Numbered from the stretch's first letter, positions 25,442 to 51,889 are shown. The stretch: 64,000 nt of DNA from Syntrophobacteraceae bacterium (GCA_049300095.1 JBAQYM010000202.1:5890-69889), one strand, 5' to 3'. Notes: a model not told the origin generated them from the sequence alone. Program-made: numbers and translations.

Positions 25442-25489
25442 ATACGCCTGAAGGGATTCGAACCCCTTACCTACGGATTAGAAGTCCGT
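25442..25489 (-). repeat. att direct repeat: 48-nt copy of the 3' part of tRNA-Arg(UCU)
   Basis: 47/48 identical to 51815-51862 (mismatch at 25468 versus 51841). Flanking bases differ on both sides. Confidence 0.85.
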
Positions 25490-25601
25490 ACAAATACATT
25501 TCACTTCTCATCACATTACCTCACTTAATCCTTGACACGCCTACATTTAAGGCCTATTGTACCTTCACTTTCCATCAGTCCGAACCCCGCTGCTTCACCC
25601 C

Positions 25602-25626
25602 AAAAAGCGGGACAGGAGCGGGACAA
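25602..25626 (+). repeat. 25-nt repeat AAAAAGCGGGACAGGAGCGGGACAA (GCGGGACA units), integrase-proximal arm
   Basis: Identical 25-mer at 51733-51757. A third CGCGGGACA lies at 25629-25637. Confidence 0.7.
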
Positions 25627-25648
25627 ATCGCGGGACAGGGAGAAGGCC

Positions 25649-26998
25649 ATGAACAAGTGGATCAAGACCAAGTACACAGGCATCCGCTACCGAGAGCATC
25701 CGACCAGGAAACACGGGGTTCGGAAAGATCGATACTATACGATCAGGTACAAGCTCGACGGGAAAGACCGAGAGGAAAAACTTGGTTGGGAAACCGATTG
25801 GGCAAAGGCCGAACTAGCCCGGAAAGAACAGGGGAATGCTACGGGCAGGACTCTTGAGCAGGAAGCCATTCTCCGCTTTTCAGAGTTGAAGGGTAACAGA
25901 GAATCCGGCAAGGGGCCTTTCACCCTGGAAGAGAAGCAAGGATCGGAGCTTGCCAAAAGAGAGGCGAAAGCCCGCGAAAAGGAGGCTGAAGACCGGGCGG
26001 TCATGCCTTTTTCGGCTGTGTGGGAGAAGTACATCGCGCAGGCTGAAGCGGACGGCAAGAAGTCTGTCGTGCGCGAAAAGAGCTTTTACAGCAATTGGAT
26101 TGAACCGGCGATAGGCAACAAGCCCATTGCCGAAATCGCCGCATTCCACCTGGAGGACATAAAGCGCAAGATGAAAAAGGAGGGCAAGCGGGAGATGAAA
26201 GGGGAAAAACCGGGGCTTTCGCCTCGATCCATTCATTACTGCCTCGCGGTAATCCGCCAGGCCTTCAATTTCGCCACGCGCCATGGGTTTTATGCCGGCC
26301 GCAATCCTGTTGAGAATGTCAAAAAGCCCACCGAAGACAACCGCCGGATGCGTTTCCTTACCTTTGACGAGGCTGAATCGTTGTTGGGAAAAATCAAGAG
26401 TGCAAGCGTCGATTGCTGGCGGATAACTCTAATCAGCTTGCATTGTGGCCTTCGTTTCGGGGAAATAGCCTCCCTGGTTTGGGGTGACGTGGATTCCGGG
26501 AAAAATTGTCTCTGTGTTCGCAATCCAAAGAACGGACGGACCCGGTTCGTGTTCATGACTGAAGAGGTAAAGACTGCCCTATCAGAAATGGAGAAGGGGG
26601 CTTGGAGCGACTTAGTCTTTCCTGCCCGGAAATCCAAGGAACGGGAGACGGGCCTGGTTCGTGACGGACAGAGGCGCCGTCAGATCAGCGACACCTTTGA
26701 CGCCGCTGTTGAAGGCTTGAAAATGAATGAGGGCATAGACGATCCCCGGCAAAGGGTCTGTTTCCACACATGCCGCCACAGTTATGCGTCCTGGCTCGTC
26801 CAGGGCGGGACCGATCTTTTCACGGTCAAGGAACTGCTCGGGCACAAGTCCCTGTCTATGACCGAACGATACAGCCATTTGCAGCCTGAAACACTCCAAA
26901 AAGCGGTCAACGGCCTGAACCGGCAATTGGTGGTAGAGAGTGAGAAAAGAAAGGCGCAGAGCCGGTCTAACGTGGTCGCAATGCCTTCTTCGGTTTAA
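25649..26998 (+). CDS. Tyrosine recombinase / phage-type integrase
   Basis: Catalytic blocks LHCGLRFGEI (Arg), HTCRHSYASWL (HxxR), LLGHKSLSMTERYSH (His, Tyr). Start set at MNKWIKTKYTGIRY. Confidence 0.9.
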   Translation: MNKWIKTKYTGIRYREHPTRKHGVRKDRYYTIRYKLDGKDREEKLGWETDWAKAELARKEQGNATGRTLEQEAILRFSELKGNRESGKGPFTLEEKQGSELAKREAKAREKEAEDRAVMPFSAVWEKYIAQAEADGKKSVVREKSFYSNWIEPAIGNKPIAEIAAFHLEDIKRKMKKEGKREMKGEKPGLSPRSIHYCLAVIRQAFNFATRHGFYAGRNPVENVKKPTEDNRRMRFLTFDEAESLLGKIKSASVDCWRITLISLHCGLRFGEIASLVWGDVDSGKNCLCVRNPKNGRTRFVFMTEEVKTALSEMEKGAWSDLVFPARKSKERETGLVRDGQRRRQISDTFDAAVEGLKMNEGIDDPRQRVCFHTCRHSYASWLVQGGTDLFTVKELLGHKSLSMTERYSHLQPETLQKAVNGLNRQLVVESEKRKAQSRSNVVAMPSSV

Positions 26999-27107
26999 AT
27001 GCCAAGCTGCGGGAGTTGGGGTAATTAATTCGAATCCTCGATAGGGATTATGTATAATAATCGCATCGAAACGGCATTCCGCCTTTTGGGTAACAGAGGG
27101 TCGCACG

Positions 27108-27351
27108 ATGACCTCCAAATGGAAGCGGCACGAGAAAATCAGGAACAACCCCGAAGACGTTCGTTTCGATGAAGCGGAATCATGGCTGTTGTCTTTTGGA
27201 TTCAGAGAAAGAACGGGGAAAGGCGGCCATAAGGTCTTCACTCATCCGTTGTGGGACGGCAGGCTGACCATGCGAAACCACAAGGGGAAGGGCCAAGCCG
27301 TATCAGATTAAACAGGCGCTCAAGGCCATTCGGGAGATTCACAATGTCTGA
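27108..27351 (+). pseudogene. hicA: HicA-family toxin gene with a 1-nt frameshift near codon 62
   Basis: Frame 0 gives ...FGFRERTGKGGHKVFTHP...NHKGKGQAVSD*. The +1 frame continues KPYQIKQALKAIREIHNV*, and its TGA (27349-27351) overlaps the hicB ATG in ATGTCTGA, the usual toxin-antitoxin junction. Confidence 0.55.
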
Positions 27352-27553
27352 TTTCAAGTATCCTGTAACAATTTTCTACAGTGAAGAGGACGGCGGATAC
27401 ATCGCTGTTGCTCCCGATCTCAAGGGATGCTCGGCTTTCGGTGAAACCCCGCAGGAAGCTCTGAGAGAACTGGAAACGGCCGTTGAACTGTGGCTGGAAA
27501 CAGCGCGCCAGGACCGGGCACCCATCCCTGAACCGACTCGAATGAGCGCGTAG
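27344..27553 (+). CDS. hicB: HicB-like antitoxin (UPF0150 fold)
   Basis: MSDFKYPVTIFYSEEDGGYIAVAPDLKGCSAFGETPQEALRELETAVELWLE is the typical HicB N-terminal domain. Confidence 0.75.
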   Translation: MSDFKYPVTIFYSEEDGGYIAVAPDLKGCSAFGETPQEALRELETAVELWLETARQDRAPIPEPTRMSA

Positions 27554-50440: not shown

Positions 50441-50457
50441 GGTATTAGCCCCCCGGT

Positions 50458-50727
50458 CTACGCCGCCGCTCGTTGCCGGGTCTGCAACCACTCGACTAAG
50501 GCCTCGCGTGTATAGCCGACGCGGTTGCCAAGGTATATCTTGGCCGGCCCTTGCCCTGGTCGGTAGTCGAAATTCTGCATGGTCGCGCGGCGATAGGGAA
50601 GCCCCAGGCGCTCGGCGTAGTGGTCCCAGCGATGCCGCCAGATGATCGGGGGGGCGGCTTCTAAAAGAAATGTCCAGTCGATTATGGGGTTTTGCGGGTG
50701 GGTCTTGCCATGTCCTTGTGTGTGCAT
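50458..50727 (-). CDS. Excisionase/AlpA-like DNA-binding protein
   Basis: HYAERLGLPYRRATMQNF...AKIYLGNRVGYTREALVEWLQTR resembles HTH_17-type excisionases. GGAGGG lies 5 nt upstream of the ATG at 50727. Confidence 0.5.
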   Translation of the reverse strand: MHTQGHGKTHPQNPIIDWTFLLEAAPPIIWRHRWDHYAERLGLPYRRATMQNFDYRPGQGPAKIYLGNRVGYTREALVEWLQTRQRAAA

Positions 50728-51732
50728 TGAAGCCCTCCATAAGTTATGAGGGCCGCTGGTGGTGAGGAGTGAAATGAAAATAAAAGGCTCCTCAGCCGCA
50801 GCGAACACCTCGCCACAGTGAAGAGCCTAAACAGTGCACCCAATTCCCCCACAAAGGCATCAGGACGACGCCTTTTACCCAGCAGACGCCACTCGCAGAT
50901 CGGTGTTGGCGCCAATGACCTGAGCTATTGTCAGGCCGTTTAGCAGGGGCAAGGTACCCACCCTGCTGGGTGGGATCATTCCAGCCCTGGGAACAAGCAC
51001 ACTTTTATCTCTATCCCGCGATGAATTCTGGATCACCCATCGCAACGTGATAATGCTACCTTCATTAATGACTTAAAATCAAGTATTTTCGTCTAATTCG
51101 GGACCAACCTATCATAACGTCAAGTGCCTAAAATGCTTACGAATAATGCGCAACCACTTTTCCTAAGGACGTTATTTGGTTTTTAAGGAAAATGGGGGGA
51201 CTCCTTAAGGGGGAAAATCTCGCATGGAAAACGGCCCGCTTCAATTTTTAGGGGAGGTAGCTTTTTTTGAAGATGGGGGGTAGGTATACCCTCCTGGATC
51301 GGGTGCACACCTGCACAGCGCCCCTAAATTCGGCTCCTGGTCTCCGTTTACATTGTGATTTGGCGATTGCACACCCCTTGCACGTCCCCGACTTGGCCTT
51401 AACACCAGAAAGCGCTTATGGAAAATGAGGATGTCGATGTAGAGGGAGGGGACCCATCTCGCGCCGCGTCCGGCCTCAAAAGGGGATATGGGGGGGCTTT
51501 GCCGGACAAGTGCCGAGGAGGGCTTTCCCCCAGGCCGGGGGGCGTTCGGCACTGGGAATCACCTGCAGGGATCACGGCCAAGGGTATTCATCCTCTCGGT
51601 ATGTCCCGCCGGAGGAGCCGGATTGCCAGGGAAGCCTTCCGCCCCGATGGGGCCTTATTGCTTTGGTAAGTCATTCGGATCGGGATTCGAGGTCCGTTGA
51701 ATTGAGGGAGGTGGGACAAACCCCGTTCCTGA

Positions 51733-51757
51733 AAAAAGCGGGACAGGAGCGGGACAA
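51733..51757 (+). repeat. 25-nt repeat AAAAAGCGGGACAGGAGCGGGACAA, tRNA-proximal arm
   Basis: Identical to 25602-25626. A related GTGGGACA lies at 51711-51718. Confidence 0.7.
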
Positions 51758-51814
51758 GATAGGTTTACAAGCAAAATGGGTTACGGTGATCTGCCATAAC
51801 CCATTGCTTTTACT

Positions 51815-51862
51815 ATACGCCTGAAGGGATTCGAACCCCTGACCTACGGATTAGAAGTCCGT
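51815..51862 (-). repeat. att direct repeat within the intact tRNA-Arg gene
   Basis: 47/48 identical to 25442-25489. Confidence 0.85.
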
Positions 51863-51889
51863 TGCTCTATCCAACTGAGCTACAGGCGC
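51816..51889 (-). tRNA. tRNA-Arg (anticodon UCU)
   Basis: Sense strand GCGCCTG TA GCTC AGTTGGATA GAGC A ACGGA CTTCTAA TCCGT AGGTC AGGGG TTCGAAT CCCTT CAGGCGT A. The cloverleaf folds by hand (74 nt) and no CCA is encoded. Confidence 0.9.

Follow-up and report, generated by a model that had tools for sequence, protein, structure and literature searches.

Results

End repeats of an island at a tRNA-Arg gene

We analysed a 64,000-nt stretch of DNA (hereafter the window) from a Syntrophobacteraceae bacterium (GCA_049300095.1 JBAQYM010000202.1:5890-69889; assembly of 4.9 Mb, 98% complete), in which a 26.4-kb island lies at the 3' end of a tRNA-Arg(TCT) gene. An earlier note, made from the sequence alone, had described an integrative island in this gene with an integrase at one end and an excisionase-like gene and a replication module at the other, and this layout was borne out. 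The sites and genes at the two ends are listed below by window position.

25400-25441, minus strand: native tRNA-Arg terminator (B' flank), now behind the orphaned 3' fragment; inverted repeat 25404-25415/25421-25432, then a T run
25442-25489, minus strand: attL core, the orphaned tRNA-Arg 3' part; 47/48 identical, A replacing C at variable-loop position 48
25602-25637, plus strand: P' arm, three GCGGGACA units at 11-12 nt spacing, 12-47 nt upstream of the int start codon
25649-26998, plus strand: tyrosine integrase, 449 aa, intact (PF00589, 4e-28; phrog_1, 1e-58)
48260-48514, minus strand: Cys-rich 84-aa protein, an open reading frame (ORF) without family match
48511-49017, minus strand: ERCC4-type nuclease (PF02732, 2e-14; phrog_3490, 2.5e-22)
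49020-49643, minus strand: DUF6475-like protein, partner of the initiator (phrog_10105)
49640-50440, minus strand: phage-type replication initiator, 266 aa, start at 50440 (phrog_16167, 2e-49)
50458-50727, minus strand: excisionase-fold protein, 89 aa, candidate recombination directionality factor (no sequence family; structure model)
50728-51601, no strand: stretch of about 0.9 kb next to the xis-like gene, in which neither a convincing gene nor an Rfam family was found and which is not similar to the genes present here in the metagenome contig L161
51602-51757, plus strand: P arm, GCGGGACA units at 51738 and 51749 and one inverted unit at 51602-51609
51775-51805, minus strand: island-borne terminator of the rebuilt tRNA gene, a 12-pair hairpin and then a T run, kept in L161
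51816-51889, minus strand: tRNA-Arg(TCT) (ARAGORN and Rfam), whose 3' 47-48 nt are the attR core

The tRNA-Arg(TCT) gene is the single tRNA that ARAGORN and Rfam found in the whole window. Its 3' part recurs as a direct repeat (25442/3-25489 and 51815/6-51862, 47/48 identical), as the earlier note had claimed, and blastn confirmed this pair. The repeat extends weakly to 66 nt at 89% identity, and across the 4.9-Mb assembly only these two places match it over that length (blastn, E 5e-18). The sole mismatch (window 25468 versus 51841) is the A at tRNA position 48 of the orphaned copy, where the functional gene and all examined relatives of the genus have C. A larger duplication was ruled out: beyond the core, the only other stretch that the two ends share is a 25-nt block described below.

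The hairpin and T run behind the orphaned copy look as the end of the native tRNA gene should. Behind the intact tRNA gene, a hairpin and T run of its own lies inside the island; therefore, the replacement 3' end and the terminator were both supplied by the island.

Arm repeats near both ends

The shared block, AAAAAGCGGGACAGGAGCGGGACAA, is a perfect 25-nt repeat made of GCGGGACA units and occurs at 25602-25626 and 51733-51757. On the P arm it ends 58 nt from the tRNA 3' end, and on the other side a 21-mer taken from it ends 23 nt before the int start codon. The window has seven GCGGGACA octamers, six of them no more than 220 nt from an island end, and these end clusters are the only tight tandem GCGGGACA clusters in the assembly, apart from a looser pair on contig C273. 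We infer that the GCGGGACA repeats are putative arm-type sites for the N-terminal domain of the integrase. The repeat string did not occur in the literature searched. No internal copy of att or of the arm repeat, which would be a sign of tandem islands, was found inside the island. Since the 25-nt blocks match and there is neither a third att copy nor an internal repeat, the two ends are taken to be partners of a single attP.

Genes for integration, excision and replication

In an alignment of nine members (40-65% identity), the catalytic residues R269, H373, R376, H399 and Y408 of the integrase are invariant. Its N-terminal domain is the most conserved part, with 15 of the first 47 residues invariant (W4, G11, R15, H17, H22, G23, D27, Y29, R33, G38, K39, E42, E43, G46 and W47).

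The 89-aa protein has no sequence family, yet a model built with seven homologues (pLDDT, the predicted local distance difference test score, 81) gave as best PDB matches the excisionase RdfS (probability 0.99, E 0.02) and the GIsul2 excisionase, consistent with the excisionase-like gene of the earlier note. Homologues of this protein stand directly upstream of the replication gene in the contigs L129, L140 and L161. The gene that the note had called replisome-organiser-like encodes a phage-type initiator, 45% identical to the initiators of complete Pseudomonas phages, and a (GAATCAG)x7 array lies within its linker (50046-50094). The adjoining DUF6475-like protein is rare, occurring in 5 of 95 other genomes of the order; no close relatives of it were found in viral contigs or among 5.8 billion proteins. 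The ERCC4 nuclease of the note was confirmed by both family matches, and it is 68% identical to its counterpart in L161, 64% to that on contig C98 of the same genome and 62% to that in an island of the relative G024. As for the proposed zinc-finger gene, a Cys-rich 84-aa ORF is present, without any match in Pfam or PHROGs; its homologues are found in L161 at the equivalent position (37-41% identity) and in an island of the relative G001 (39%). In the gene-free stretches of the island, Rfam gave nothing besides the tRNA.

Two further loci of the same genome carry related replication genes. Contig C98 (L087; 3281-15167) holds a second integrative element with a 751-aa primase-helicase, the ERCC4 nuclease mentioned above and an integrase at tRNA-Thr(CGT). 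Contig C12 (L086) starts inside a related initiator gene (207-503), whose C-terminal domain is 85% identical in nucleotides and 76% in amino acids to window 49750-50047.

Relatives of the island in metagenomes and genomes

A search of metagenome contigs for the 21-mer from the 25-nt block gave 43 that carry it. A tRNA 3' end precedes it by 45-71 nt in 23 of these, mostly by 56-60 nt, and the motif has the orientation seen in the island, that is, pointing towards the tRNA; the 71-nt cases are tRNA-Ser(CGA) and tRNA-Leu(CAA). The tRNAs beside the repeat are Lys-CTT, Gln-CTG, Ser-CGA, Pro-GGG, Thr-CGT, Ala-GGC, Trp, Met, Leu-CAA, Leu-TAA and Arg-ACG. Seven of the 43 contigs have the 21-mer just upstream of an integrase 39-41% identical to that of the island over long alignments, and in six of these the alignment starts 10-50 nt past the motif. 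Within the class of the host, four other genomes carry the motif; three have it upstream of an integrase (37-56% identity), whose start lies about 4-110 nt past it.

Several members show what the module can accompany. L129 is a complete 7.3-kb member at tRNA-Ala, consisting of a repeat, small ORFs, a split primase-helicase, a Xis-like gene, a 198-aa ORF, an integrase and a repeat. L140 has an integrase, a Xis-like protein and a primase, and L083 a Prim-Pol/AAA_25 protein, a methylase and a Cas3-like gene. L081, which has the closest integrase (61% identity), carries metabolic and regulatory cargo. In L085, an integrase 57% identical to that of the island is accompanied by an AAA_25 protein, Terminase_4 (a small terminase), an HK97 gp10-like protein, a Clp (prohead) protease and a capsid gene. 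The right arm of the island has a collinear counterpart in L161: a tRNA part, a terminator, an identical 25-mer, a Xis-like protein (59%), a different replication gene, ERCC4 and the Cys-rich protein. Genes of a cyclic-oligonucleotide-based antiphage signalling system (a DncV-like nucleotidyltransferase and SAVED) neighbour these in L161 (1273-3611 and 6478-6671), where only a partial 3' half of a tRNA stands beside the arm repeat, possibly left by tandem insertion.

From these members, the backbone can be read as core, terminator, arm repeat, a variable part, xis, an exchangeable replication module, ERCC4, the Cys-rich gene, cargo, int, arm repeat and core. The island has all four features by which we recognised the family: the integrase N-terminal domain, a two-unit repeat at a constant short distance past a tRNA 3' end, the repeat within about 120 nt upstream of int, and a small excisionase-fold protein encoded directly upstream of a replication gene. 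Judged by these sequence comparisons, the island is a member of a widespread family that is fixed in its arm repeat and integrase N-terminal domain and has at least 10 other tRNA types as targets. The family is apparently undescribed so far.

Phage features of the island

No match to capsid, tail, lysis, terminase, relaxase or secretion families was obtained with Pfam or PHROGs for any island ORF tested, in agreement with the earlier note. Among genes of conjugative or mobilisable elements, no relaxase, coupling protein or type IV secretion match was found with Pfam on the tested ORFs; oriT was not searched for.

The earlier note had also called the backbone satellite-like. A phage satellite would be induced by a helper and packaged in helper particles, and the end repeats would let the helper initiator act on the island. 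Part of what defines a satellite is indeed present, namely an integrase, a replication gene of its own (an O-type initiator, not a primase) and a small regulator. Relatives of the integrase occur in the int-xis-primase islands L129, L140 and L083, and in L085 one stands beside the terminase, gp10-like, protease and capsid genes listed above. The unit of the end repeats is an iteron inside O-like initiator genes of seven phage contigs, and defence cargo is common in satellites. However, none of the ORFs tested matched satellite packaging genes (terS, capsid, protease, the portal set, Sid/Psu/Delta) in Pfam or PHROGs, and no interference gene was found; 26.4 kb exceeds the usual satellite sizes. 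The helper prophage that the note had suggested looking for was not detected: the HK97 capsid, portal and large-terminase families PF05065, PF04860, PF03354 and PF03237 had no match in the assembly, although a metagenome-assembled genome such as this may lack its own prophages. No iteron array occurs elsewhere in the assembly, and a phage-type array was found in 0 of 122 genomes of the class. We consider the satellite reading unlikely. The module of int, xis and arm repeats belongs to a family with satellite-like members; therefore, the satellite resemblance that holds is one of kinship of the integration module only.

A second possibility is what is left of a temperate prophage after loss of the late genes and uptake of cargo. 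The initiator, the DUF6475-like protein and the ERCC4 nuclease all belong to PHROG families, the initiator has the identity to complete Pseudomonas phages given above, and a frameshifted gene and gene-free stretches would suit decay. On the other side, L129, L140, L083, L161 and L081 have no structural genes in the stretches covered, L085 being the exception, and the elements on C98 and C12 of the same genome repeat the pattern of a replication gene with ERCC4 without virion genes. Moreover, both att arms and the integrase are intact. We regard a prophage remnant as very unlikely.

The iterons of the seven phage contigs deserve description in their own right. The 11-nt unit GGAGCGGGACA, which is the unit of the island end repeats, forms arrays of 3-7 copies followed by A/T-rich DNA inside the O-like initiator genes of the IMG/VR contigs L165, L166 and L168-L172. 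All of these initiators have the phrog_35955 N-terminal domain and are encoded beside a DnaB-like helicase or a primase-helicase, and the array encodes a conserved GTGAGQERD linker peptide. In the four searched phage records with the array, the units cluster essentially only at the origin. No homologue of the island integrase was found in the five phage records searched, and hhalign showed no homology between the phage initiators and the integrase or the Xis-like protein of the island. We roughly estimate the probability of chance identity between the island repeat and the phage iteron at a few percent. An origin mimicry might be imagined, in which the end repeats, besides serving as integrase sites, are copies of the phage iteron on both attP arms; the initiator of a resident or superinfecting phage would bind them and derepress int and excision, or replicate the circle. 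This seems decidedly unlikely. If true, it would be a satellite strategy without reliance on packaging genes.

Cargo

The genes between the two ends are as follows.

27108-27553, plus strand: hicA (27108-27311), a frameshifted pseudogene, and hicB (Pfam)
28659-31768, minus strand: extracytoplasmic function (ECF) module, with a 91-aa secreted protein, a Gly-tailed protein, a CBM48 anti-sigma candidate, an ECF sigma factor (30610-31200) and a CBM48 lipoprotein
32154-32747, plus strand: receiver-only response regulator, likely start near 32334 (PF00072, 2.5e-21)
33586-39612, minus strand: OMF-MFP-RND efflux operon (Pfam)
39703-40522, minus strand: NfeD-like OB-fold protein (PF01957, 2.5e-12) and secreted EF-hand protein (EF-hand families)
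41166-47608, minus strand: type I restriction-modification (R-M) genes hsdM-hsdS-hsdR (Pfam; PADLOC REase_I 9e-189, Specificity_I 2e-59, MTase_I 5e-229)

Pfam, PHROGs and PADLOC agree with the cargo proposed in the earlier note, with hicA now found to be frameshifted. Its HicA_toxin match is limited to profile positions 2-42 of 58; the missing C-terminus lies in the +1 frame, and this remainder ends ATGTCTGA, overlapping the start of hicB. In the genus, nothing closer than paralogue-level matches was found for the ECF module (66-68% DNA identity), hicAB or the response regulator.

The same note had considered the combination of cargo unusual, and the efflux operon, at least, is not exotic. An RND orthologue is present in 66 of 80 other genomes of the bacterial family. 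The whole OMF-MFP-RND operon occurs in six relatives of the genus (amino acid identity 89-95% for RND, 75-88% for MFP and 76-83% for OMF), where its divergence resembles that of ordinary orthologues at the same loci; there its chromosomal surroundings vary, and no integrase is found in the 15-20 kb around it. At the threshold used, 11 of 38 species of the genus lack the operon, and the genome of the island has no second copy. By these comparisons, it is a native-type operon captured by the island. Since the native tRNA terminator is the first feature of the left flank, the operon was either inside the element at integration or entered it later.

Two intergenic stretches of about 100 nt (31883-31995 and 32912-33013) have copies of 75-85% identity in several genomes of the genus, the first also on contig C173 of the same genome. 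Outside the island, a repeat of about 100-290 nt at window 23836-24189 gave 270 blastn matches across the assembly, and one copy ends contig C202. It looks like a miniature inverted-repeat transposable element or a repetitive extragenic palindromic element.

History of the site in relatives

For the empty-site search, 40 relatives were queried with both flanks and 16 tRNA-Arg loci were compared. The lysS/tRNA-Arg junction is conserved, but each examined species of the genus has a different downstream side. Hence, what the earlier note had named as grounds for abandoning the island was not seen: the relatives do not carry the same genes behind this tRNA, and the repeat is not part of a larger segmental duplication.

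The same tRNA-Arg(TCT) gene of G024 holds a 9.2-kb island with an exact 48-nt repeat, which resembles the element on C98, and G001 has an 8-kb island at the same tRNA-Arg. In G015, a terminator follows tRNA-Arg(TCT) directly, and then amtB-glnB. On contig C207 of the genome studied here (14258-18364), amtB-glnB-uppP lie 2 nt from the end of an integrase gene. As these genes directly adjoin tRNA-Arg(TCT) in G015, an older rearrangement at the tRNA-Arg hotspot is suggested.

These observations bear on a further reading, a fixed composite region in which at least two elements and native DNA were joined by tandem insertion or rearrangement and no longer form one mobile unit. The islands of G024 and G001 mark the tRNA-Arg gene as an insertion hotspot in the genus, and the RND operon is native-type DNA. 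Against a composite, neither a third att copy nor an arm repeat inside the island exists; furthermore, the identical 25-nt block and the 47/48 core at the ends argue for one recent pair of partners. We find a composite region highly improbable.

Discussion

Taken together, these findings point to one integrative genomic island as the likely explanation of the region; its own tyrosine integrase would have placed it in the 3' end of tRNA-Arg(TCT) by site-specific recombination. The island is probably still competent. The recombination core is the 48-nt 3' part of the tRNA, with the displaced native 3' end and its terminator now at the far junction. Because the P' repeats lie so close upstream of int, we propose a probable autorepression of the integrase gene, like that by IntS in KplE1. 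At the other end, the excisionase-fold protein, whose gene would head an operon with the replication genes, would act as the switch for excision, and replication of the excised circle would then start from the heptamer array in the initiator gene. Earlier hosts within the same bacterial family may have contributed, through recombination, the type I R-M system, the ECF module, the response regulator, the broken hicAB and the RND operon. The island itself is ordinary in kind: tRNA-inserted, integrase-driven and cargo-bearing.

Several points weigh against this interpretation. The empty tRNA-Arg site that the earlier note had suggested looking for, with the same flanks on both sides, was not found among the species representatives, and the attB (or attL) pattern had no match in metagenome contigs. 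No part of the island is distinguishable from the host in base composition (z-scores of GC content at third codon positions, -2.6 to +1.3). The broken hicA and the gene-free 0.9 kb beside the xis-like gene mean that there is some decay. In addition, the binding of the integrase to the repeats is something we infer only, and another protein could be the ligand, as the GCGGGACA unit is an origin iteron in unrelated phages.

The closest functional model, by analogy, is the cargo-carrying tycheposon of Prochlorococcus (10.1101/2020.12.28.424599). Tycheposons and the island are alike in a tyrosine recombinase, insertion at a tRNA with flanking partial tRNAs, a replication module, an excisionase, and cargo operons for adaptation or defence. 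In addition, cargo forms and forms with capsid or terS genes are linked by the integration module in tycheposons, as L081 and the island are with L085. They differ in that tycheposons belong to another host phylum, whereas the island is larger at 26 kb and has a lambda-O-type initiator instead of a primase/helicase. The likeness covers the layout features in the definition given in that paper, whose text does not contain the word 'arm' and hence mentions no arm repeats.

For the recombination module, the closest model, again by analogy, is KplE1 (CPS-53)/HK620, in which IntS and TorI act at argW and for which the overlap of attL with the int promoter, the uncoupled directionality factor and the autoregulation have been shown (PMC2951348). 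Both KplE1 and the island use the 3' end of an Arg tRNA gene, have an int promoter region that overlaps attL and the P' arm-type sites, and carry a separately transcribed directionality-factor gene at the other end. KplE1 differs in being a defective prophage and in the sequence of its arm motif (the P' sites share TAAA), and for the island, autoregulation is only a proposal of ours.

Phage-inducible chromosomal islands (PICI), their cfPICI relatives and P4-like elements resemble the island in the integrase, a small Xis/AlpA-like regulator upstream of the replication gene, insertion at a tRNA and defence cargo, and one relative of the integrase, L085, has a cfPICI-like gene set. In contrast to these elements, the island is larger and has no packaging or capsid-redirecting gene, identified repressor or helper found. 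The origin of lambda within gene O also offers a parallel, with a tandem array in the initiator linker, as for (GAATCAG)x7 in the island and the GGAGCGGGACA arrays in the phage contigs. The island array has a 7-nt unit, and its role as an origin is a prediction from this analogy.

The family of 43 contigs, with at least 11 anticodon types including that of the island, offers a clean, naturally occurring model for the retargeting of tyrosine integrases. Like the tycheposons of cyanobacteria, it links forms with a minimal gene set, forms with capsid genes and forms laden with cargo. Finally, an island with a native-type efflux operon is a plausible route by which chromosomal operons may be spread again among relatives.

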